A program made the translations under genes and the position numbers. A stretch of 38,159 nucleotides of DNA from a virus (Duplodnaviria > Heunggongvirae > Uroviricota > Caudoviricetes), in the IMG/VR virus record IMGVR_UViG_3300045988_123528, positions 1 to 38,159 of that record. One strand, given 5' to 3'. A model generated the notes under the pieces. The model had not been told where the DNA came from. It did no database searches and was given only the letters and a program-made list of their open reading frames with translations. Of this stretch, positions 720 through 36,512 are shown in pieces. The stretch's first letter is position 1; each line of letters opens with the position of its first letter.

Positions 720-1292
720 ATGTTTTGCGAAGAAAAAGTAGCTCAAATGGCTGCATACCTACTTCTTAAGCGAGGTGGGCGCATGGCATATCTGAAATTG
801 ATGAAGTTGCTCTATCTGTCTAACCGCCAGTCGATTTTGAAGCATGGCAGGATGATCGGCGAAGATAGCCTTTACTCTATGAAATTTGGACCAGTCATGT
901 CGAATACGCTGAACTTGATTCGCGGTAAGGCTGAAGGCATTGGTGACTACTGGTACAACTTGATAGAGACGAACGGGCATAATGTATCGTTGCGTTCAGA
1001 TCCGAGGGAAATGGATGCAGACGAGGTCTTTGATGAATTGAGTCGTGCAGATATCCGGATTTTAGATGAAATCTATTCTCGGTATGGGCATATGAACCGA
1101 TTTGATCTCGCAAATATGACGCATTTAGAAAGCGTTTGTCCAGAGTGGCACGATCCTGGCAATTCTCGTAAGCCTATAGACCTGAAAGAAATGCTGATCA
1201 GTGAGGGTAAAAGCGAGGATGAGGCTAATCGCATAATTGGCAAAATGGAAGAATCTCAGAAACTTAAGGAATTTTCTTTGCAATTATCATGA
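720..1292 (+). CDS. Panacea-domain (DUF4065, SocA/PanA-like) protein, putative antitoxin
   Basis: 190 aa; KLMKLLYL and MKFGPV motifs recognised as the Panacea pattern; SD GAGG upstream; stop overlaps next start (ATGA). Confidence 0.55.
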   Translation: MFCEEKVAQMAAYLLLKRGGRMAYLKLMKLLYLSNRQSILKHGRMIGEDSLYSMKFGPVMSNTLNLIRGKAEGIGDYWYNLIETNGHNVSLRSDPREMDADEVFDELSRADIRILDEIYSRYGHMNRFDLANMTHLESVCPEWHDPGNSRKPIDLKEMLISEGKSEDEANRIIGKMEESQKLKEFSLQLS

Positions 1293-2862: not shown

Positions 2863-3668
2863 TTCACCTCTTGTGATGGTTTTGCTGCAAAATACTCGAT
2901 ACCTTTATCCCAGATAGATTTTATGGTCGACCACGTGACTGGCACTTTAATTTCAATACGTCCGCTCCCGTCACAGGTATCGCAATCATCATCGCCAAAG
3001 CATTCCAGGCAGCTTATAAACGTAGTTTCTGAAAATTCACCGGATAGCGCCCCCTTAGCGCCGTTCTCGGCTGTTAGTCTCTTCGGCACCATAACCCAAC
3101 CATCCGGAGTTACCGGAGAGTTGCCAGACAGTGCGTTCTGCAATCGTTCCAGCTTAACGTATTCCTGAACCCTGTTTCCGTCGCACGCCTGAAGCCATTG
3201 CACAGCCTTTTGCGCATCAGTGTGAAAGGCACAAGTGCGACCGTCATCAAATTGCATTTCGTAGAGGTCAGCAACCTGTTTAAACTGCGTTTGTGGCAAC
3301 TTGTAAGCCTGGCTTGCAGGTACGGCACCATAGAGCATGGCAGCGCGGCAGGCGTTCCAGCCTTCATCAAAACCGACTATGCCATTATTTAAAGACGGAC
3401 GAGCATCTGGCACCACCGGCACTGGCTTGGCTATATATAGCGGCTGAACATACCAGCCCTTTGATAACCAACTGTCAGCAATGTTTTTACTCCTGGTTAT
3501 TGCCGGAATACCTAAGCCATTGTCTGAATGCAGCCATGCCACCGGATCCTCTTCCAGCGATGCCAGAGCAATTTCATAAGCACGGCGCTCAACATTGTCT
3601 CGCACGTCCATGCTGCTGATTCGTTCTTTGATTTCTTTAATCAGTTCTTTATCGGTAAATGTGGTCAT
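2859..3668 (-). CDS. Hypothetical phage protein with C-terminal CxxC-x5-CxxC zinc-ribbon motif
   Basis: 269 aa ORF in operon context; CLECFGDDDCDTC near C-terminus. Confidence 0.5.
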   Translation of the reverse strand: MTTFTDKELIKEIKERISSMDVRDNVERRAYEIALASLEEDPVAWLHSDNGLGIPAITRSKNIADSWLSKGWYVQPLYIAKPVPVVPDARPSLNNGIVGFDEGWNACRAAMLYGAVPASQAYKLPQTQFKQVADLYEMQFDDGRTCAFHTDAQKAVQWLQACDGNRVQEYVKLERLQNALSGNSPVTPDGWVMVPKRLTAENGAKGALSGEFSETTFISCLECFGDDDCDTCDGSGRIEIKVPVTWSTIKSIWDKGIEYFAAKPSQEVK

Positions 3669-4030
3669 TATGCTCCAGCCTCCGGTGCTTTTGGCATTAC
3701 TGCCCAGTGAGTGATGTTGACGTTTTCAAGGTCCCCGACCTGAAATGTCCACTGCCATTCTCCGGTTTCTTTTTGCCCCCATGTATACCAGAGAGAACGC
3801 CAGCCAATCAGCCAGCCTTCTCCATTAGCATCAAATAACAGAACACTTTCATTCGCTGGCGGCAGTTCAGCTGACACTGGTATTACTTTGTTTTCCAGTG
3901 CTGCACATTTAGCTTCAAGCGCATCAAATTTACGCACCAGGTATTCAGCATCCGTTTCATTCACTTTCAGATCTCGCGGTACACATTTCCCGCGAAGAAA
4001 TCCTTCCATTTCGAAAACATTCATGCGCAT
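3668..4030 (-). CDS. Hypothetical phage protein, YfdS-like by size and position
   Basis: 120 aa, start/stop overlaps with neighbours in the leftward operon. Confidence 0.45.
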   Translation of the reverse strand: MRMNVFEMEGFLRGKCVPRDLKVNETDAEYLVRKFDALEAKCAALENKVIPVSAELPPANESVLLFDANGEGWLIGWRSLWYTWGQKETGEWQWTFQVGDLENVNITHWAVMPKAPEAGA

Positions 4031-4557
4031 TTTCGTAACTCCGATAATTCGTTAAAGCGTTCCATAAACATCCCGTAGGCATGGCCTGGAGCCAGTGGAA
4101 TCACGTTGAACATCTCTGTTGCCGGGATACCTTCCAGTACAGGCCAGAAAGAGCCATCATCAAGCCCGAGATCGCGGCGTTCGGTTGCCAGCATGATGAG
4201 ATCGGCATATTTCACGGGCGTACTCATAACTGGGGGTAACCCGTATTTCTCACGGATTACGGCGTCTATTTTTTCTTCCATTTGTTTATAGTCAGGAAGA
4301 AGGCGTTTCAGTGGTGCGGGAATGTCCTGGCAATACGCTTCTGTTGCATCATGCATTAACGCTTCAAAAGCAAATTCCTGCGGCACCAACTGGCTGCAAA
4401 GAACCGCATGTTGGGCGACGCTGTAGAAGTGCGAAAGATGACCGGCAAAGCGACAGATATTTGAAAGGGAAACCGCGATATCGTTAATATCGATGTCGTC
4501 TTTATTTATCCTGTCATAATAAAAATGCTTCCCAGAAAAAGTTTTGATAAATGACAT
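4021..4557 (-). CDS. HD-domain phosphohydrolase (YfdR-like)
   Basis: HxxxxxxxxxxxHD-type motif (HAVLCS...LMHDATEAY); start set at the internal ATG; track ORF extends to 4584. Confidence 0.65.
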   Translation of the reverse strand: MSFIKTFSGKHFYYDRINKDDIDINDIAVSLSNICRFAGHLSHFYSVAQHAVLCSQLVPQEFAFEALMHDATEAYCQDIPAPLKRLLPDYKQMEEKIDAVIREKYGLPPVMSTPVKYADLIMLATERRDLGLDDGSFWPVLEGIPATEMFNVIPLAPGHAYGMFMERFNELSELRKCA

Positions 4558-4684
4558 TTTGTTCTCCACGTATATGCGCTGCACCGCGCTGAATTCTGGT
4601 AAAAAGAATCCCTCACCATCCGGCGATTATTGAGTAAATTACGTTTCCATAAATGCCCCCGCAGGGGCATTTGCAGTAATGAAA

Positions 4685-5509
4685 TCAGGCGGTGAAAGTA
4701 CCAATAAAGGTTTCTACTTTGCTGTCCTTGAATTTCTCAACAAGCAGATCACGAAATTCGTTAGCCATTTCTTCCTGCACCGCCTCCAGCTGAATAATGC
4801 GCAGAACCAGTACAGGACGATCGCCAGTGATAATGCTGAGGCGTAATTTAAACGGACGTTCTTTCAGACCTTCAAACGGAACGCATTTAAATTCAAATGC
4901 CACTGGCATAATGTCTTTGGTCTTCGCTTCGACAGACTCCATCAGGGAGCGTTTGCCGCTGAAGTCATTGTCTTCAAAATCAGCGGTCTGGTTCGCTTCA
5001 ATTGTGATTTTACGGATCGCCGCAGCCGCTTTGGTTGCCTGAATGGCGTCACCATTAGCATCAAAGCCCACAAGGTAGTCGGCCCAGTCTTCAATCCATT
5101 CTGCCAGTGACTTCTGGGAGTTACGCTCGCCATTAACAGACAACAGAGCAGAGAACGGTGCTGTCTTTTTCAGTTTGAGAGTGGCGGTGTTATCTGCGTG
5201 ACCTGGTTCATCAATAGTACCCAGGTTAAGCACACTGACTGCTCGCATATTATCGGCATCGATAAAGCAGCGGGTGCCTTCATCTGCAAGATCTTTAGAA
5301 TAACGGGTAAAGTCATCGATGCTGGCAGTGGAAAGTGCACCACGGAAACGGAAGCGATTTAAATTAAATTTTTCCAGATCATGAATGCGGAAATTCTCAG
5401 GCAATGCCACAGCATCGGCACCAATATTATTGATAATTTCATTAACACCCTGAGCAGAAATAAGGGCATGGATTTGATTAATTGCGGTTGCGTCTAAGTT
5501 CTGAGACAT
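4685..5509 (-). CDS. DUF2303 / YfdQ-like prophage protein
   Basis: 274 aa, the size of E. coli CPS-53 YfdQ; SD GAGGA upstream. Confidence 0.55.
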
Positions 5510-5574: not shown

Positions 5575-5937
5575 TTAACGACCTGCTGCGCGGAGTTTTC
5601 CGTCAGGTTCACCGGCAAGAGTCAGTAATTGTCCCTGGTCTTCCTGCAGAATAGTCAGGCGACCACCGCGATTGACATACATCGGCGTTTCGGTGGTGTC
5701 TTCTTCGGAAATTTTCCCGCGGTTAGTCGGGCGAACATATGAGAGTTTGTGTTTGATTTTCACACGGTTCTCATCAAATGGTTCGATTTCCAGGTTGAGC
5801 GAGACCTTACCTTTGGTTTTCGTGTTCATCACACCGGAAGCGACTTCACTGAGAACTGCGCCGATTTTGGTTTCAAATACGCCGCCGTCCAGCTCCCCAA
5901 TAAATGCCTGCACATCAGTACTGCGTTCGCTAGCCAT
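5575..5937 (-). CDS. YfdP-like hypothetical protein
   Basis: Start chosen at MASERSTD with SD GAGGAG 7 nt upstream; the track ORF extension to 6255 is GC-rich non-coding-looking. Confidence 0.55.
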   Translation of the reverse strand: MASERSTDVQAFIGELDGGVFETKIGAVLSEVASGVMNTKTKGKVSLNLEIEPFDENRVKIKHKLSYVRPTNRGKISEEDTTETPMYVNRGGRLTILQEDQGQLLTLAGEPDGKLRAAGR

Positions 5938-6374
5938 TTTGCTGCTCCTCATCATATCGACCCTGCAAGGCCGATTAGTTTCTCCACAAAACAGAGAAGA
6001 ACACCTGCGGCGGCAGCCGCCCGGATGGATTGGGTTATGAGCCCGTCGTCCGGTGATGCTCTTCTCTGTTTTGTAAAAAGGACGGTACCAGCCTGAAGCA
6101 AGGGTACAAACTGGTACCGCCAGGACTACACACAGCATAAAGTTGTGGTGCCGGGTGCCTCCCGGTGCCTGGCGAAGGTTGCACACCAGACGGGTGGGTA
6201 TCCACAGAAGGTCGACTGTCAGCCTCAACCTTAACCCGCGTGCGCTGAGCCGCATTCACCACAACGCTAAGGATTCTCTTTGGTTGAAAATACTTAGCTG
6301 TTATGTGCCTGTCTTTTCACCACTTCAGGCTCGGTGGTATCCTTTTAAGCCCGTATACATAAAAGGAAAATCAA
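5938..6374. other. Non-coding, hairpin-rich block (possible structured RNA or regulatory region)
   Basis: About 430 bp with no credible ORF; 17/18 bp inverted repeat at 5987-6003 / 6057-6074; perfect 9 bp inverted repeat CGGTACCAG / CTGGTACCG at 6083-6119; GCGGC..GCCGC hairpin. Confidence 0.4.
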
Positions 6375-7046: not shown

Positions 7047-7700
7047 TCAAAAATCCATTATTACTTGTTTGACAAGACCAACTATTCTGCAGTTCTCACC
7101 GCATTCAATAGTTTTATAGTTAGGATTTAGTGGGACGAGATACCTGTTCGGCCAGTCCTCAACAAATTTTTTGAGTGTCGCTTCTTGCCCACCATTGATA
7201 TGGGCAACAACGATTTTTCCGTTAATACACTCTGTATCAATAATATCTGGCTCTACGATAACGATAGAACCTTCTGGTATCGATGGTGAGCCGAGGGGAT
7301 TGGTCATTGAATCACCACGGACCCGTAGTGCAAATGCCATTTCTGATACAAGGGCGGTAGTATAAACCCACTCTTCAGCATCTTCTTTCCTGACACCAGG
7401 CTCCGTCATTGTCCATGAACCCGCCTGAACCCACGAGATGAGGGGGACTTTTTTAACTGCGAATATTTCAGGTTTTAGATTTATCTTTGGTTCAGGCGAG
7501 CCTTTTCCGCTAACAAGCCACAGAGGATCGCATTTAAGTGCGTTGGCTAGGGCTTGAAGGTTGGCTCCATTTGGTTGGTAGTCGTCCTTTTCCCATCCAG
7601 TAACCGTGACACGGTTCACACCAGTCAAATCAGCCAGTGCTTGTTGTGTCAGGTTCAGTTCTTTTCGCCTTTGGCGAATACGATCACTCATGTTCATCAT
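7047..7700 (-). CDS. cI: CI-type prophage repressor (N-terminal HTH, C-terminal S24 LexA-like peptidase)
   Basis: HTH LTQQALADLTGVNRVTV; Ala-Gly site (VQAGSW); GDSM Ser and LKKF Lys of the S24 dyad. Confidence 0.85.
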   Translation of the reverse strand: MMNMSDRIRQRRKELNLTQQALADLTGVNRVTVTGWEKDDYQPNGANLQALANALKCDPLWLVSGKGSPEPKINLKPEIFAVKKVPLISWVQAGSWTMTEPGVRKEDAEEWVYTTALVSEMAFALRVRGDSMTNPLGSPSIPEGSIVIVEPDIIDTECINGKIVVAHINGGQEATLKKFVEDWPNRYLVPLNPNYKTIECGENCRIVGLVKQVIMDF

Positions 7701-7795: not shown

Positions 7796-7993
7796 ATGCG
7801 GAAATCCGACGTGATTAATTATTTCGGCGGAGTTTGTAAAACCGCCGAAGCCCTAGGTATTAAGCATCCGTCTGTTTCAGAGTGGCCTGAGATTATTCCT
7901 GAAGGCCGAGCGTACCAGTTAGAAAAAATTACTAACGGGAAACTGAAAGTTGACGTGTCTTTATATCAAAAGACTAACAGTGCTGCGGCATAA
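7796..7993 (+). CDS. cro: Cro-like transcriptional regulator
   Basis: 65 aa, divergent from cI, SD GGGAGA; Cro/YdaS-like sequence. Confidence 0.65.
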   Translation: MRKSDVINYFGGVCKTAEALGIKHPSVSEWPEIIPEGRAYQLEKITNGKLKVDVSLYQKTNSAAA

Positions 7994-8020: not shown

Positions 8021-8605
8021 GTGGGTAAAGAACCTGAATGGAAAGTTGATAAACAACCAGCATGGCTGGTGGCAGCAATACGAAGAACGATTGCTGATTT
8101 ACCTCATGGCTATGAGGAAGCAGCAGAAATTCTTGGTTTGTATAAATCTGATGATATCACCCCAGCAAAAGATCAATTGCATAACAGACTGCGTAGCGGT
8201 GGGGATCAAATTTTTCCACTTGAGTGGGCCATGGTTTTACAGGATGCCAGTGGTACCAGGCATGTAACAGATGCAATAGCCCGTCGTAGTAATGGGGTGT
8301 TTGTGCCGCTGGTGGTCATTGATGACATTGACAATGGTGACATTAATCAGCGGCTGATGGAGTCAATAGAATGGATTGGCAAGCATTCCCAGTACTTACG
8401 CAAGGCAACTGCTGATGGAGTTATTGACCAGGCTGAGCGTGAGCAAATCGAAGAGAACAGCTACCAAGTAATGGCGAAGTGGCAGGAGCATTTAACACTG
8501 TTATTTCGTGTTTTTTGTGCGCCGGAAAAGAGTAACGCCCGCGAGTGTGCAGCTCCGGGCGTCGTGGCGTCGATTGCTTCTGGTTGTGGAGAAACTAACG
8601 CATGA
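8021..8605 (+). CDS. Putative early regulatory protein (CII/YdaT-like position)
   Basis: 194 aa directly downstream of cro; family assignment uncertain. Confidence 0.4.
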
Positions 8606-8940
8606 ACAGTTTAACAACACACTACCGTCGCTCGCAACTGATTGCACTTCCTGTACCGGGTGGAAAAGCGAAGGTGGAGTATTGCTATGCAGTGAATGTA
8701 CCAGGTGACAGGGAAATTGTAACCCACAGCTTTGCAGAGTGGGCTGTGGGTGATTTCAACCGGCAGAAGGAGACAGTCCTTTGCGACAAGTTAACCGCTG
8801 GTTCAAAGATCACTACGGAGTGCCCGTCAGAGTCATTCGTTGGGAGCCGGAAACACAACGGGTTATCTACCTCCGTGAAGGCTATGAACATGAATGCTTC
8901 AGTCCGGTCGAACAGTTTCGTCGTAAATTCAGGGAAATAG
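8602..8940 (+). CDS. Hypothetical protein, possibly the 5' part of a frameshift-split gene
   Basis: ATGA coupling to upstream gene; the C-terminal third looks non-protein-like. Confidence 0.3.
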
Positions 8941-8993
8941 AGGTCGGTCATGAGCCTGTTAATGACATCCCAGCCCATTGTGATAAATCGTGA
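8781..8993 (+). CDS. Hypothetical protein, possibly the 3' part of the same split gene
   Basis: Frame is -1 relative to 8602 ORF; TTG start with SD AAGGAG 7 nt upstream; protein-like composition. Confidence 0.35.
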
Positions 8994-9942
8994 TCTTGCA
9001 TGCCGTATTGGTCTGAATGAGGCAATTGTGTTGCAGCAGCTTCATTACTGGCTGAATGAAACGAATTCAGGCACTGAGCATGGCGGAATTCGCTGGGTTT
9101 ATAACACGACAGAACAGTGGCTGGAGCAGTTTCCGTTCTGGTCAGAGTCCACTCTGAAACGCACATTTGCAAGCCTGAAATCACTTGGGGTTTTGCGTCG
9201 CGAGCAACTCAATAAATCGAAGCGTGACATGACCAACTTCTACACGATCAACTATGAAAGTGAGCTTTTAGAAGAGGTCAAAGTGAACGAATCCATCAGG
9301 TCAAAATGCACTTCTCCATCTGGTCAAAGTGACCTGATGGATGGGCGCAAAATGACACGATCCATTGGTTCAAAACGACACGCTGTCATCGGGTCAAAAT
9401 GGCCCAATGATCTTACAGAGAATACAACAGAGATTACTACAGAGAATAAAACCTCTTCTCGTCCGGACGCTTCGCAACCGGACACGCAAACGGCTGAACA
9501 GGAGTTTTTAACTCGCCATCCTGATGCGGTTGTATTCAGCCCTAAAAAGCGCCAGTGGGGAACGCAGGATGATTTGACCTGCGCACAGTGGCTCTGGAAA
9601 AAAATCATCGCCCTGTACGAGCAAGCCGCCGAATGTGACGGCGAGGTGGTTCGTCCCAAAGAACCGAACTGGACAGCCTGGGCAAACGAAATTCGCCTGA
9701 TGTGTGTGCAGGATGGTCGTACTCACAAACAAATCTGCGAGATGTACAGCCGCGTCAGCCGCGATCCGTTCTGGTGCCGTAACGTGCTCAGCCCGTCGAA
9801 GCTGCGGGAAAAATGGGATGAGCTTTCCCTGCGCTTATCGCCGTCCGTAAGCACGTACACCGAAAAACGCGAAGACCCGTACTTCAAATCCAGTTACGAC
9901 AACGTGGACTACAGCCAGATCCCGGCAGGATTCAGGGGGTGA
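8950..9942 (+). CDS. Replication initiator (O-like) with central iteron-encoding linker and DnaT-like C-terminal domain
   Basis: 330 aa; iterons inside the gene; C-terminal domain resembles DnaT-type primosomal domains (recognition-based). Confidence 0.65.
   Translation: MSLLMTSQPIVINRDLACRIGLNEAIVLQQLHYWLNETNSGTEHGGIRWVYNTTEQWLEQFPFWSESTLKRTFASLKSLGVLRREQLNKSKRDMTNFYTINYESELLEEVKVNESIRSKCTSPSGQSDLMDGRKMTRSIGSKRHAVIGSKWPNDLTENTTEITTENKTSSRPDASQPDTQTAEQEFLTRHPDAVVFSPKKRQWGTQDDLTCAQWLWKKIIALYEQAAECDGEVVRPKEPNWTAWANEIRLMCVQDGRTHKQICEMYSRVSRDPFWCRNVLSPSKLREKWDELSLRLSPSVSTYTEKREDPYFKSSYDNVDYSQIPAGFRG
9271..9470. repeat. Putative replication origin: five GGTCAAA(A/G)TG-type iterons plus AT-rich repeat tract
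   Basis: Iteron cores at about 9276, 9299, 9322, 9367, 9391 (mostly 23 bp spacing), then ACAGAGA-rich AT tract. Confidence 0.6.
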
Positions 9943-10433
9943 TCATGAGTCTGTTAAATGACGTTCAGAAATTCATTGAAGCCCATCCGGGGTGTACTTC
10001 CGGAGACATTGCGGATGCTTTTGCAGGTTACTCACGGCAGCGCGTTCTGCAGTCAGCAAGCAAGTTACGTCAGAGTGGGCGTGTGGCTCACCGTTGTGAA
10101 GGAGATACACGCAGACATTTCCCACGCCTGACTGAGAGAGCGCAGGAGCCGGAACCACAACCAGTTCGTGAAACCAGACCTGTGCGCAATTTCTATGTCG
10201 GCACTAACGATCCCCGGGTGATTTTGTGCCTGACCCGCCAGGCGGAAGAACTGGAGTCCAGGGGCTTATACCGTCGTGCTGCAACGGTGTGGATGGCGGC
10301 ATTCCGTGAAAGCCACTCCCAGCCAGAACGAAACAATTTTCTGGCGCGTCGTGAGCAGTGTTTACGGAAAAGCAGCAAGCGCGCTGTATCGGGTGATGAG
10401 TGGTATCTGTCAGGGAATTACGTGGGGGCTTAA
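9939..10433 (+). CDS. PerC-like (Pch-like) regulator
   Basis: ELESRGLYRRAATVWMAAF recalled as the PerC-family signature; family call unverified. Confidence 0.4.
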   Translation: MIMSLLNDVQKFIEAHPGCTSGDIADAFAGYSRQRVLQSASKLRQSGRVAHRCEGDTRRHFPRLTERAQEPEPQPVRETRPVRNFYVGTNDPRVILCLTRQAEELESRGLYRRAATVWMAAFRESHSQPERNNFLARREQCLRKSSKRAVSGDEWYLSGNYVGA

Positions 10434-11086
10434 TGAGTAATAAATATTGCCAGGAGTTGGTGGAACTGCGGAACAAACCAGCCCATGAACTGAAGGAAGT
10501 GGGTGATCAGTGGCGCACGCCGGACAACATTTTCTGGGGAATTAACACCCTGTTTGGCCCGTTTGTTCTGGATCTGTTCACTGACGGTGATAACGCCAAA
10601 TGTGCTGCGTATTACACGGCGGAAGACAACGCGCTGGCGCATGACTGGTCAGAACGTCTTGCGGAGCTTAAAGGGGCTGCCTTTGGTAATCCCCCATACA
10701 GCCGCGCCAGTCAGCATGAGGGGCAATACATCACCGGCATGCGTTACATCATGAAACATGCCAGTGCCATGCGTGATAAGGGTGGGCGCTATGTTTTCCT
10801 GATCAAAGCTGCCACCAGCGAAGTGTGGTGGCCGGAAGATGCGGACCATATTGCTTTTATTCGCGGGCGTATTGGTTTTGAACTGCCTGCCTGGTTTATC
10901 CCGAAGGATGAGAAGCAGGTGCCGACAGGCGCTTTCTTCGCTGGTGCTATTGCTGTTTTCGACAAGACCTGGAAGGGACCGGCAATTAGCTACATCGGGC
11001 GCGATGAACTTGAGGCATGTGGTGAGGCGTTTCTGGCGCAGGTTCGCCAGCAGGCGGAAAAACTGGTCAGGGAGATGGCGGCATGA
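10433..11086 (+). CDS. Phage DNA N6-adenine methyltransferase (orphan, Dam-like)
   Basis: WRTPDNIF...DLFTDGDN...AFGNPPYS motifs; start ATG overlaps upstream stop. Confidence 0.75.
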   Translation: MSNKYCQELVELRNKPAHELKEVGDQWRTPDNIFWGINTLFGPFVLDLFTDGDNAKCAAYYTAEDNALAHDWSERLAELKGAAFGNPPYSRASQHEGQYITGMRYIMKHASAMRDKGGRYVFLIKAATSEVWWPEDADHIAFIRGRIGFELPAWFIPKDEKQVPTGAFFAGAIAVFDKTWKGPAISYIGRDELEACGEAFLAQVRQQAEKLVREMAA

Positions 11087-11409
11087 CGACGTTAACTCAA
11101 TGCCAGCAGCAGGTGCTGGATATGCTGATTTCTTACCAGCAAGAACGTGGCTTCCCGCCAACTAATCAGGAGGTGGCAACCATGCTGGGATACCGTTCAG
11201 TGAATGCAGCGGTGGAGCATCTTCGCGCACTGGAGAAAAAAGGCGTCATCACGATAAAGCGTGGCGTGGCCCGGGGGATAACGCTTCATACCGCGGTGAA
11301 GGACGACGACAGCGAGGCGGTCGGGATTATCCGCGCACTGCTTGCCGGTGAGGAAAACGCAAGGCTGCGTGCAACCCACTGGTTACATGAGAGGGACCTG
11401 AAAGTATGA
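11083..11409 (+). CDS. LexA N-terminal DNA-binding-domain-like protein lacking the S24 peptidase domain
   Basis: 108 aa; QQVLDMLISYQQERGFPPTNQEVATMLGYRSVNAAVEHLRALEKKGVI closely parallels the LexA DNA-binding domain; no Ala-Gly/Ser-Lys module. Confidence 0.6.
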   Translation: MTTLTQCQQQVLDMLISYQQERGFPPTNQEVATMLGYRSVNAAVEHLRALEKKGVITIKRGVARGITLHTAVKDDDSEAVGIIRALLAGEENARLRATHWLHERDLKV

Positions 11410-13634: not shown

Positions 13635-14387
13635 ATGAACCTTGAAGCCTTACCAAAATATTACTCCCCAAAATCTCCAAAATTGAGCGATGACGCACCG
13701 GCGACAGGCTCAGGTGGTTTAACGATTACGGATGTGATGGCTGCGCAGGGGATGGTGCAGTCGAAAGCACCGCTTGGGTTTGCCTTATTCCTGGCAAAAG
13801 TTGGTGTTCAGGATCCTCAATTTGCGATTGAAGGTCTGCTCAATTACGCGATGGCACTGGATAACCCGACATTGAACAAATTGAGTGAAGAAACCCGGTT
13901 ACAGATCATCCCTTACCTTGTGAATTTTGCCTTTGCTGATTATTCCAGGTCTGCGGCAAGTAAGGCTCGCTGTGAGCATTGTGCTGGTACTGGATTTCAT
14001 AATGTATTGCGCGAAGTGGTGAAACACTCCAGAAGCGGGGAATCTGTTATCAAGGAAGAGTGGGTGAAGGAACTATGTCAGCATTGTCATGGTAAGGGAG
14101 AAGTCAGCACAGCGTGCAGAGGGTGTAAGGGTAAAGGTATTGTCCTGGATGAAAAAAGGACCCGGCTTCATGGCACGCCTGTTTATAAGATTTGTGGGCG
14201 TTGCAATGGAAATCGGTTTAGCCGTTTACCAACCACACTGGCGCGGCATCATGTCCAGAAGCTGGTACCAGACCTGACGGATTATCAGTGGTACAAAGGA
14301 TATGCAGATGTCATTGATAAACTGGTGACAAAGTGCTGGCAGGAAGAAGCATATGCTGAGGCGCAATTAAGAAAAGTGACGAGATAA
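13635..14387 (+). CDS. Late antitermination protein Q (QuuQ-like)
   Basis: 250 aa, Cys-rich zinc-finger motifs; sits immediately upstream of a PR'/tR' unit and the lysis genes. Confidence 0.7.
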   Translation: MNLEALPKYYSPKSPKLSDDAPATGSGGLTITDVMAAQGMVQSKAPLGFALFLAKVGVQDPQFAIEGLLNYAMALDNPTLNKLSEETRLQIIPYLVNFAFADYSRSAASKARCEHCAGTGFHNVLREVVKHSRSGESVIKEEWVKELCQHCHGKGEVSTACRGCKGKGIVLDEKRTRLHGTPVYKICGRCNGNRFSRLPTTLARHHVQKLVPDLTDYQWYKGYADVIDKLVTKCWQEEAYAEAQLRKVTR

Positions 14388-35091: not shown

Positions 35092-35118
35092 AAACGCCCC
35101 TTATGGGGCGTATTTTGC
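35092..35118. terminator. Bidirectional terminator between tail genes and the acyltransferase
   Basis: ACGCCCC TTAT GGGGCGT hairpin plus T-run; overlaps the acyltransferase stop. Confidence 0.7.
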
Positions 35119-36270
35119 TGCTTGCACGTTATTCTTTGGAAGAATTTTATTTGATAAATAATTGGAAAATTTTATCGCGTTATCATCAATTAGCAATTTA
35201 AAAATTAAAGCTGCAAGTATTGAAGATAATAAAGTGATTGGGAAAGTAATAAGTAAAGACTTTCCGTATGAAACTCCTGCATCACCAAGCTTAATTACGA
35301 TCAAAGAAGATATTGAAGCTATTAATGGAAAATGCACCAGATAAAGAGAGTATGATACATCTCCAAGAAATTTACAGGTTTTTGTTTTGAATAAATTTGA
35401 GATAACTATTGATTTATCAATTGCTATAATAAGAAACATTGAACCAAAGGCTTGAGAAACAATTCTCAAATCAAAGTAAGTTATGTCACTGTTATTTATC
35501 CAGATACTATGTTCAGTTATAAAATATGGGTATGAACCTAGGTAACATCCTAGTAAAATAAACATAAAGATAATTGTGGTATTAATTTTCTTTATATTAA
35601 CTGAAACATCTGCACAAATCACCCCTAATATAAATCCTATTAGATGACTTGAGCTAAATACCACAATACCTAAAGTATAAAAAGCAAACCTAATTCTGGT
35701 AGTGCAAACTAGTGGGACCAGAACGAGTACAAGAATTGAGCCAACCAATTCGGTGTGAATGGTCCATAATACTGGGTTTAATGTTTGAACTCCGTAAAAA
35801 TATGTACCAATACCCCCTTCCCATACCGCATTCAGTAATGTCATTGTAGTTGGCATCGCTGGGATTACTTGTGATAAAGAGTACACTGCAGTTTCTGATG
35901 AATGAAATCCAATCGTTGTCATCAGAATAAAGGAAAATATAGTAGATGCAATGGTAGGTATTGCAAGACGTGGGTATCTCTTGATAATGGATTTAGAGTA
36001 CCATTCTAGCCCCTTCCCTTTGAAAAAGGGAATCGATAGAACCATTCCACTCAAAACGAAGAAAAGCATTACGGCAAAGTGACCATTATATAATATATTA
36101 AATGGAGTTTCACTTATGTATTTCTCTCCATAATGATCTATCTGATTTTGAACAAAAACAGATGGTAGAAAGAATTGCATGAAATGGCTTATTAAAACTA
36201 TCAAGCAAGCTATACCACGAATACCATCCAGTGCGTGATCTCGGGAAGGCGTCGTTAATTGTTGAACCAT
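35101..36270 (-). CDS. Acyltransferase family 3 integral membrane protein (OafA/Oac-like)
   Basis: LDGIRGIACLIVLISHF N-terminal motif and many TM segments; AT-rich relative to the rest of the prophage; SD GAGGA before this ATG. Confidence 0.8.
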   Translation of the reverse strand: MVQQLTTPSRDHALDGIRGIACLIVLISHFMQFFLPSVFVQNQIDHYGEKYISETPFNILYNGHFAVMLFFVLSGMVLSIPFFKGKGLEWYSKSIIKRYPRLAIPTIASTIFSFILMTTIGFHSSETAVYSLSQVIPAMPTTMTLLNAVWEGGIGTYFYGVQTLNPVLWTIHTELVGSILVLVLVPLVCTTRIRFAFYTLGIVVFSSSHLIGFILGVICADVSVNIKKINTTIIFMFILLGCYLGSYPYFITEHSIWINNSDITYFDLRIVSQAFGSMFLIIAIDKSIVISNLFKTKTCKFLGDVSYSLYLVHFPLIASISSLIVIKLGDAGVSYGKSLLITFPITLLSSILAALIFKLLIDDNAIKFSNYLSNKILPKNNVQAAKYAP

Positions 36271-36512
36271 CAATTCCTCACACATTGTAATAAAGTATTA
36301 AAATAAAATAGTAAAAGCAGAATATACAAATACGAAAAGCGGAATTATACTTTACAAGAGTGCTTGATGCTATTGTTTTGTCGAGATTTATAATCTGATC
36401 TTCTGTAGATGTTGTCCTGGCATTGTCCAATCATGATCTATGGGCTGGCTGGCGAACTTTCGATAGTGCGAGTATTGAATGATTTCCAGCCGTTACCGAT
36501 TTTACGTGTTAA

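Follow-up and report, generated by a model that had tools for sequence, protein, structure and literature searches.

A lambda-like origin inside a phage initiator gene that ends in a DnaT-type peptide, a candidate means of recruiting the host DnaB–DnaC complex

Introduction

How does a phage that carries an initiator and an origin, and no gene for a helicase loader, bring a helicase to its own DNA? The question is raised by the Caudoviricetes record IMGVR_UViG_3300045988_123528, of which a stretch of 38,159 nucleotides (nt; the window in what follows) was analysed over its full length, and within it by a replication initiator of 330 amino acids (aa) encoded on the plus strand at 8950–9942. The window represents an almost complete, 38-kb temperate phage of E. 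coli/Shigella of the SfV/mEp460 kind, its top DNA matches being the Escherichia phages vB_EcoM-720R4 and SKA5, together with mEp460 and SfV. A preliminary description of the sequence had listed this open reading frame (ORF), which is present as described, and had proposed that it holds an iteron origin, that its C-terminus resembles DnaT and that it may recruit the host primosome directly. Here we find that the origin itself follows an ordinary lambda-style design, and that what is new is the DnaT-type terminal peptide of the initiator together with its exclusive relation to loader genes, of which we found no account in the searchable literature.

Results

The initiator is a lambda O-type protein with a DnaT-type tail

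Along its whole length, the initiator matches phrog_391 ('replication initiation O-like'; E 1e-101), and its gene shares 98.6% nucleotide identity with mEp460_4F5 'Primosomal protein I', a database label in which the likeness to DnaT was picked up automatically and without interpretation. Homologues of the initiator all begin with MSLL..., and PHROGs alone named the protein, single-sequence Pfam and NCBIfam searches having returned no family. The C-terminal helical domain (Table 1) is homologous to the C-terminal domain of lambda O, with 33% identity by BLASTP (E 1e-26) and an hhalign probability of 100% (E 2e-41), and belongs to a family of 2665 representatives at 50% identity that is joined to at least three types of N-terminal domain, namely one with no Pfam entry, HTH_36 and Phage_rep_O. 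The AlphaFold2 (AF2) model of this domain is all helical, with a predicted local distance difference test (pLDDT) score of 76.8; a PDB fold search with the model gave no fold match and no DnaT chain among the matches, and phmmer and profile searches of the PDB with the initiator found nothing, DnaT included.

The likeness to DnaT is confined to the extreme C-terminus, where the initiator ends in SQIPAGFRG and E. coli DnaT in SQIPPGFRG, such that 8/9 residues are identical (BLASTP). This terminal motif is conserved among DnaT orthologues and, in the initiator, lies in a tail that is predicted to be disordered (pLDDT <50). The DnaT-like part comprises the last 9–11 residues only, with the likeness reaching DnaT residues 160–179 in related initiators. 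The preliminary description had extended it to a domain of ~130 aa, and in this respect it does not hold: the DnaT domain PF17948 gives no match even at E<=10, a profile of 123 sequences aligned to the DnaT profile with hhalign over the last 14 residues only, and comparison of the domain with both families decided for lambda O and against DnaT. Neither the N-terminal oligomerisation domain of DnaT nor its acidic PriB-binding linker was found in the initiator by BLASTP, the similarity being restricted to the tail. Since the test for the DnaT domain fails, the initiator is not a member of the DnaT family.

The class of tail predicts the loader gene that follows

In agreement with the preliminary description, no P- or DnaC-like gene follows the initiator. 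Indeed, an iterated lambda-P hidden Markov model, together with phmmer searches using DnaC and DnaB of E. coli as queries, detected no homologue of P, DnaC or DnaB at E<=1 in six-frame ORFs of >=40 aa, either in the window or in the complete SfV genome (37 kb), and scans of the window's early genes with Pfam and PHROG revealed no helicase and no loader. SfIV shares this module and was obtained as a functional phage (PMC3851460).

Within the family of the lambda O C-domain, the initiators carry different tails, which we group as T (DnaT-type), L (...LDxxNTDWxxG..., the class of the C-terminus of lambda O itself), W (...WNxxEAWExx) and K (a longer extension). We compared tails with loader genes at 80 Enterobacterales loci, obtained from one genome per species by scanning with a six-sequence alignment. 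A full-length lambda-P gene follows at all 23 loci with an L tail, all 21 with a W tail and all four with other tails (three of them STEW variants of L), none of which has a DnaC gene. By contrast, none of the 20 T-tail loci has a full-length P gene; three have DnaC and 17 have no loader, one of the latter retaining a P remnant of 78 aa. The 12 K-tail loci have neither P nor DnaC. A lambda-P gene is therefore next in 48/48 cases for L, W and other tails versus 0/32 for T and K (Fisher p 5e-23). Where there is a loader, it is of the P type with L and W tails and of the DnaC type with T tails.

The L class includes the C-terminus of lambda O (KPKLDLTNTDWIYGVDL; locus L087, O gene at 687–1586, compared with loci L102–L176). 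As L and W tails always occur with a gene of the lambda-P family, the strict pairing predicts that P docks on a peptide formed by the last ~15 residues of O and, if this is true, it pinpoints the O–P contact, an interface that is not resolved in recent cryo-EM work on DnaB–P (PMC12661323). The K tail is an extension of ~70 aa on initiators of the lambda-O family that ends in ...RRMSEFxGRxAWxxIWxQAxEQAA; it was seen in Providencia, Proteus, Morganella, Edwardsiella and Sodalis (loci L128–L139, L154, L159 and L169), with P, DnaC and DnaB absent nearby in 12/12 cases, and may constitute another loader-independent solution.

Where a DnaC homologue lies directly downstream, as in 3/20 T-tail loci and in Gifsy-1, it is 48–51% identical to E. 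coli DnaC, and the dnaT–dnaC junction of E. coli (GGATTCAGAGGGTAACGATGAAAAACG) differs by one base from that of Gifsy-1 (GGATTCAGGGGGTAACGATGAAAAACG). The association is also seen when starting from the loader. Among 76 viral contigs with a Gifsy-type phage dnaC, the ORF upstream terminates in RDxNx[IV]SxPDxxIPxGFRG in 74, and none of these 74 ORFs contains the lambda-O C-domain. The tail, in some phages together with dnaC, appears to have been captured from the host dnaT–dnaC operon.

In the window, the place that relatives give to P or dnaC is occupied by a PerC-like gene (Table 1), which is not a loader by the searches described above, and the junction between the initiator and this gene (GGATTCAGGGGGTGAtcATG) has the layout of stop, two nucleotides and ATG that is also found at dnaT–dnaC. 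A phage-encoded loader that escapes recognition, for example this winged helix-turn-helix (wHTH)/PerC-like protein, would be compatible with the gene being a constant companion of the T1 type of tail to which the window belongs, with the block of DNA homology shared with SfV, mEp460 and others, which begins inside the tail and runs into the PerC-like gene, and with lambda P itself lacking general fold relatives. However, the genes that follow other T-tail initiators are unrelated to one another (methyltransferase, Ren-like, ParB-like, RusA, the LexA DNA-binding domain (DBD), DnaC) and include no PerC-like gene, those of Klebsiella and HannyBb being cases in point, which argues that the tail has no constant phage partner, and the PerC-like protein matches families of transcription activators. 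Given these unrelated neighbours, we judge the PerC-like gene unlikely to be a hidden loader, and a hidden loader of any kind very unlikely.

The tail recurs on unrelated phage and plasmid initiators

The T tail is found on at least eight unrelated architectures of phage and plasmid initiators, each time at the extreme C-terminus. In addition to the window type, these comprise HTH_36 joined to the lambda-O C-terminal domain (SfII), SfV orf39, mEp390 (Phg_2220_C), Gifsy-1 (Phage_rep_O N-domain; ...GRDVNHISAPDKTIPTGFRG), SPN1S (Uetakevirus; an N-domain followed by the full DnaT domain PF17948; ...RDVNAVPEPDSEIPPGFRG), a Serratia plasmid with a Rep3 initiator (...KRDINEISEPDTQIPPGFRG) and Klebsiella plasmids with an RPA-type initiator (...NPGEPDSEIPPGFRG). 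SfV orf39 has a 24-aa tail identical to that of the window and mEp390 gp42 a closely related one, and both proteins are without the lambda-O C-domain. A search of phage proteins with the last 20 aa of DnaT gave 49 records, all annotated as replication initiators save a few that are unannotated or generically named, and the plasmid matches, dnaT itself aside, are Rep proteins.

The Serratia initiator (L184, 1125–2063) belongs to the Rep3 (WH1/WH2) family and the Klebsiella initiator (L185, 1047–2057) to the RPA family, indicating that the DnaT-type tail is not limited to phages. In the SPN1S initiator (L183, 1748–2563), an unrelated N-domain is fused to the DNA-binding domain of DnaT in full (PF17948, E 4e-18) and to the tail; thus, some phages copied the whole C-terminal half of DnaT and others the terminal peptide only.

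The last two codons of the motif (AGR GGN) double as the Shine–Dalgarno sequence of the next gene, which raises the prospect that the C-terminus is conserved by constraint on the nucleotides, such as a ribosome-binding site, a recombination junction or coupling to the translation of the following gene, rather than by protein function. AGGGGG or AGAGGG is present in these two codons, 7–10 nt before the downstream ATG, the arginine codon is always AGR and the layout of stop, two nucleotides and ATG is conserved. Nevertheless, the codons for I/V, P, G and the final G vary synonymously while the peptide stays, the peptide is also found on plasmid Reps and SPN1S, where the next gene is 5–120 nt away, and IPxGF lies outside any Shine–Dalgarno sequence, such that we find a nucleotide-level origin of the whole motif hardly credible.

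The tail might instead assist in binding single-stranded DNA (ssDNA) or in oligomerisation, roles proposed for that of DnaT, with the helicase being brought in by the lambda-O-type C-domain contacting DnaB–DnaC, or by host DnaA. DnaT84–153 does bind dT30 ~2–3-fold more weakly, and less cooperatively, than DnaT84–179 (PMC4132743), but such a role leaves unexplained both the exact prediction of P, DnaC or no loader by the tail class and the occurrence of the tail on eight unrelated initiators, Rep3 and RPA types included, and the IPxGFRG peptide, which is strictly C-terminal, has the look of a docking motif. We therefore regard it as quite unlikely.

The host DnaC–DnaB complex is the candidate partner

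The manner in which DnaT, or the preprimosome, recruits DnaB–DnaC has been stated to be unknown (PMC4129139, PMC11087952, PMC13377028). The last ~20 residues of DnaT are a flexible tail (PMC5778457), which in the 2026 preprimosome structure falls outside the modelled units (4OU7, residues 84–153) (PMC13377028). From gene linkage only, we infer that the partner of the phage tail is the DnaC–DnaB complex, the partner that the same tail is proposed to recruit in DnaT. On the comparative evidence, we consider it an even call that origin and initiator are lambda-like and that the initiator, through a tail mimicking DnaT, recruits host DnaB–DnaC without a phage loader. The preliminary proposal of direct recruitment of host machinery draws strong comparative support from the correlation of tail with loader, from the tail's portability and from its being linked to dnaC, with the amendment that the partner is more likely to be DnaC or DnaB–DnaC than the whole primosome.

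A DnaT mimic could also act through another host protein, such as PriA, PriB, PriC, SSB-interacting factors or DnaB alone, so that the initiator plugs into the restart primosome. The tail is, after all, common to a primosome protein, DnaT's tail has no assigned partner in the literature, and its pattern of acidic residues, then IP, then an aromatic residue is one that we take to be loosely like the C-terminal tip of SSB. We consider such a partner unlikely, as the linkage of tail and dnaC is tight in phages (reciprocal in 74/76, 3/20 T-tail loci, Gifsy-1) and the tail adjoins dnaC in the host operon too. Melted origin bubbles, moreover, are not among the known substrates of PriA. In cryo-EM structures, PriB binds the acidic linker of DnaT and PriA its folded C-terminal domain.

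Several points weigh against recruitment of DnaB–DnaC by the tail. The authors who described the preprimosome structure in 2026 prefer DnaT's N-terminal domain to the tail as the recruiter of DnaB–DnaC (PMC13377028), a view that counts against our reading of DnaT and is without bearing on the phage data. The ~2–3-fold weaker binding of ssDNA by DnaT without residues 154–179 (PMC4132743) means that the tail may have a DNA-related role. In the window, the T1 tail keeps just ~11 residues of the DnaT tail, the model of the N-terminal domain is of just moderate confidence, and part of the conservation of the final RG, and of the final RG only, may reside at the nucleotide level. In addition, the 80 loci are phylogenetically non-independent and collapse into 48 clusters when grouped at 80% identity, DnaC is >=82% identical throughout the 76 dnaC loci, and the linkage of tail and dnaC could merely reflect capture as one block. 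Natural swaps, on the other hand, argue against a purely phylogenetic effect: P0016 combines an N-domain, iterons and a C-domain of the window type (76–80% identity) with a W tail, and a P gene comes next; P0404 (L tail) and P0461 (W tail) behave in the same way.

The origin is written over the linker codons of the initiator gene

The preliminary description had likened the locus to ori-lambda within gene O, and this is borne out by the homology of the C-domain and by the location of the iterons and an AT-rich tract within the codons of the interdomain linker (Table 1). Both strands of the window were searched for GGTCAAARTG, which has four exact copies, all on the plus strand (iterons 1, 2, 3 and 6), and two degenerate units are found in the same 23-bp register (iteron 4, GCGCAAAATG; iteron 5, GTTCAAAACG). 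The array described previously as five iterons mostly 23 bp apart is thus real in its existence and spacing, and has six units, which span 9276–9404 at successive distances of 23/23/23/23/24 bp. A stretch of 130 bp holds five matches to GKYCAAARYG, no cluster exceeded two in 2000 windows simulated with a Markov-1 model, and the clustering is far beyond chance. When one mismatch to GGTCAAARTG is allowed, eight matches are seen across the window versus 5.6 expected, which is not significant; the signal consists of the exact copies, their clustering and their phasing. The core of each iteron is an imperfect 13-bp dyad, GGTCA-AAR-TGACC, as would be read by a dimeric binder.

To the right of the iterons lies an AT-rich tract with three copies of ACAGAGAWTAC and a GC content of 0.318, compared with 0.501 for the window; the wider span of 9271–9470 that had been called AT-rich has a GC content of just 0.455. 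By composition alone, the tract ranks in the lowest ~2% of 44-mers and no more, and its significance derives from its position and its near-invariance in relatives. Indeed, an alignment of seven relatives, with a DNA identity of just 58–77% in the initiator gene, shows that the phasing of the six cores is preserved and that the 12-mer tract, of three or four copies, hardly varies. This combination of conserved phasing and 12-mers is typical of a cis-acting DNA element superimposed on coding sequence, and the tract is a putative DNA-unwinding element. The 12-mers encode a repetitive peptide, TENTTEITTEN, and number three in the window and four in two relatives (L112 and L114), a change in copy number that supports a function at the level of the DNA. 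A small palindrome next to the tract retains TCGTCCGGA in 5/7 relatives. The linker itself is predicted to be disordered (pLDDT <50 for residues 109–180), as expected if the DNA, rather than the protein, constrains the sequence.

The N-terminal domain resembles the winged-helix (WH) domain of an initiator in the AF2 model and is the likely reader of the iterons. PF04492 (Phage_rep_O) was not found in this domain, Pfam at E<=10 giving noise only, and the full-length AF2 model is poor (pLDDT 53.5) and served only for the domain boundaries and the fold of the N-domain. In SfII and SfIV, an HTH_36 N-domain and 15-bp TCAAAATCTGACCCG repeats occupy the same place, while the C-terminal half is 97% identical to the window type, with the mosaic breakpoint at nt ~491 of the gene, right after the AT-rich tract; the type of N-domain and repeat in SfV is different again. 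The GGTCAAAATG array is retained in relatives with the window-type N-domain, and relatives with an HTH_36 N-domain have other repeats. As the iteron type switches with the type of N-domain, the two travel together as a specificity module, as in lambdoid phages, and the specificity of each N-domain appears to be matched to its own iterons.

Table 1. Coordinates of the initiator gene, its domains, the origin elements within it and the surrounding early genes
Feature	Position (nt)	Strand	Remarks
cI-like repressor gene	7047–7700	-	ORF listing, Pfam/PHROG
cro	7796–7993		ORF listing, Pfam/PHROG
CII(CP76)-like gene	8021–8605		ORF listing, Pfam/PHROG
Two small overlapping ORFs			between the CII(CP76)-like gene and the initiator
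Initiator gene, lambda-O-like	8950–9942	+	330 aa and stop; origin inside
N-terminal winged-helix DNA-binding domain	8950–9273	+	aa 1–108
Disordered interdomain linker	9274–9516	+	aa 109–189; origin in its codons
Iteron 1 core, GGTCAAAGTGAAC	9276–9288	+	
Iteron 2 core, GGTCAAAATGCAC	9299–9311	+	
Iteron 3 core, GGTCAAAGTGACC	9322–9334	+	perfect dyad GGTCA/TGACC
Iteron 4 core, GCGCAAAATGACA	9345–9357	+	degenerate in the window; GGTCAAAATGA in relatives
Iteron 5 core, GTTCAAAACGACA	9368–9380	+	
Iteron 6 core, GGTCAAAATGGCC	9392–9404	+	
AT-rich tract	9411–9454	.	44 bp; three 12-bp repeats, ACAGAGAATAC / ACAGAGATTAC / ACAGAGAATAA
Small palindrome, CGTCCGGACG	9460–9469	.	right of the AT-rich tract; read from the sequence
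Lambda-O-type C-terminal helical domain	9517–9837	+	aa ~190–296
Flexible C-terminal tail	9838–9939	+	aa 297–330; ends in DYSQIPAGFRG (aa 320–330, nt 9907–9939)
wHTH and PerC-like gene	9945–10433	+	Pfam PerC, E 1e-9; phrog_1324 'transcriptional activator'
Dam methylase, LexA-DBD protein, RusA, KilA-N/Ant, DUF968/HNH protein, Q			past the PerC-like gene

Neighbouring genes

Upstream of the initiator, the ORF at 8602–8940 (+, 112 aa) matches phrog_1170 over its full length (E 1e-69) and a 63-aa family, phrog_20047, over aa 1–63 only, and the ORF at 8781–8993 (+, 70 aa) matches Pfam DUF4222 (E 2e-18) and overlaps the start of the initiator by 44 nt. The two share 160 nt in different frames, each with family support, and the overlap at 8602–8993 could reflect a mis-called long ORF or a frameshift product. 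On the minus strand, a cluster like yfdQ/yfdR/yfdS extends over 3668–5509 and encodes a DUF2303 protein (4685–5509), a YfdR-like protein (4021–4584) and a DUF551 protein (3668–4030). E. coli YfdR binds domain I of DnaA (Phe46) and competes with DnaB–DnaC at oriC (PMC4776307); by analogy, the YfdR-like gene would suit a loader-less phage that needs host DnaB–DnaC to be diverted to its own origin.

Further from the origin, 720–1292 (+) encodes a SocA/Panacea antitoxin-domain protein (Pfam E 2e-19) and is followed by an overlapping ORF of 139 aa of unknown function, the pair spanning 720–1708, which may be a toxin–antitoxin or defence pair at the prophage end. The product of 35101–36285 (-), an Acyl_transf_3 protein (E 6e-27) encoded next to the tail-fibre genes, is similar to the O-antigen acetyltransferase morons of serotype-converting Shigella phages. 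The 108-aa protein of 11083–11409 (+) is a LexA DNA-binding domain alone (Pfam E 3e-19), without the S24 peptidase domain, and is kept beside RusA in SfV, SfII and mEp390. The Q antiterminator (13635–14387, +) has a match to a DnaJ-type CXXCXGXG zinc finger (Pfam E 3e-7) ahead of its Antiterm domain. Lastly, the ORF at 5575–6255 (-) was called by program at 226 aa, whereas matches to phrog_204 cover aa 101–225 only, and its true start is probably ~300 nt downstream of the first start codon.

Discussion

The module belongs to an SfV/mEp460-like temperate phage and is built like O and ori-lambda of phage lambda. In the mechanism that we propose, dimers of the winged-helix domain would bind the six iterons and form a complex resembling an O-some, which would melt the adjacent 12-mer AT-rich tract; the many clustered DnaT-type tails could then dock the host DnaC–DnaB complex, so that host DnaC loads host DnaB at the phage origin without a hijacker of the P type. 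The tail would thus act as an exchangeable 'loader code', with L and W tails accompanying a phage P gene and T tails accompanying either a phage DnaC homologue or no loader gene. Stated more generally, and as a proposal that we advance tentatively and think somewhat more apt to fail than to hold, the DnaT tail (…PDxxIPxGFRG-COOH) would be the recruiter of DnaC–DnaB in the preprimosome and would have been copied repeatedly onto phage and plasmid initiators to load the helicase without a loader of their own, the last ~10–20 residues forming a code by which L and W dock loaders of the lambda-P type and T docks loaders of the DnaC type.

Recruitment through a DnaT-type tail would explain how a large group of temperate phages replicates with a single replication gene, the loader-less group including SfV, SfII, SfIV, mEp460, ST64B, cdtI and several Stx-converting phages. 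The tail class also offers a simple annotation rule for the dependence of prophage and plasmid replication on host factors. Moreover, the DnaT peptide, which recurs on eight or more unrelated initiators and is linked to dnaC, is a small and testable candidate for the handover from the primosome to DnaB–DnaC.

Phage replication modules of an 'initiator-solo' type are reportedly distinguished in the classification of Weigel and Seitz from 2006. The window resembles them in having an origin-binding initiator without an adjacent helicase or loader gene, and in the searchable literature we found no mechanism based on a DnaT-type C-terminal peptide proposed for such modules. With E. coli DnaT (primosomal protein i), the initiator shares 8/9 of the last C-terminal residues and, in the case of some phages with T tails, the same gene junction to dnaC is shared as well. 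Unlike DnaT, the initiator lacks the three-helix-bundle domain, the DnaT N-domain and the acidic PriB-binding linker, and it is a predicted sequence-specific origin binder as opposed to an adaptor for fork restart. Modules of the Gifsy-1/Gifsy-2 type have a DnaT-type initiator tail at the same position of the early operon, but differ in having a PF04492 N-domain, a different C-domain and their own DnaC homologue, a gene that the window lost or never had. The initiator of SPN1S (Uetakevirus, epsilon15-like) is similar in its tail (...PEPDSEIPPGFRG) and in the lack of an annotated loader nearby, whereas it has the whole DnaT DNA-binding domain before the tail where the window has the lambda-O C-domain.

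The closest parallel is with lambda O and ori-lambda. In both, the initiator gene contains the origin, its interdomain linker codons holding tandem dyad iterons followed by an AT-rich tract; the DNA-unwinding element of lambda is roughly 40 bp in length and, relative to the iterons, on the side where the window has its tract (PMC12661323). The globular C-terminal domains are homologous, and the N-domain and iterons form an exchangeable mosaic unit. The differences are that the window has six iterons spaced at 23 bp rather than four at ~20–24 bp, an AT-rich tract of 12-mer repeats and a DnaT-type tail, where lambda O ends in ...LDLTNTDWIYGVDL. Thus, although its N-domain is not PF04492 and no P gene is next, the origin within the gene, the lambda-O C-domain and the matching N-domain/iteron module make the locus a member of the lambda O/ori-lambda kind.

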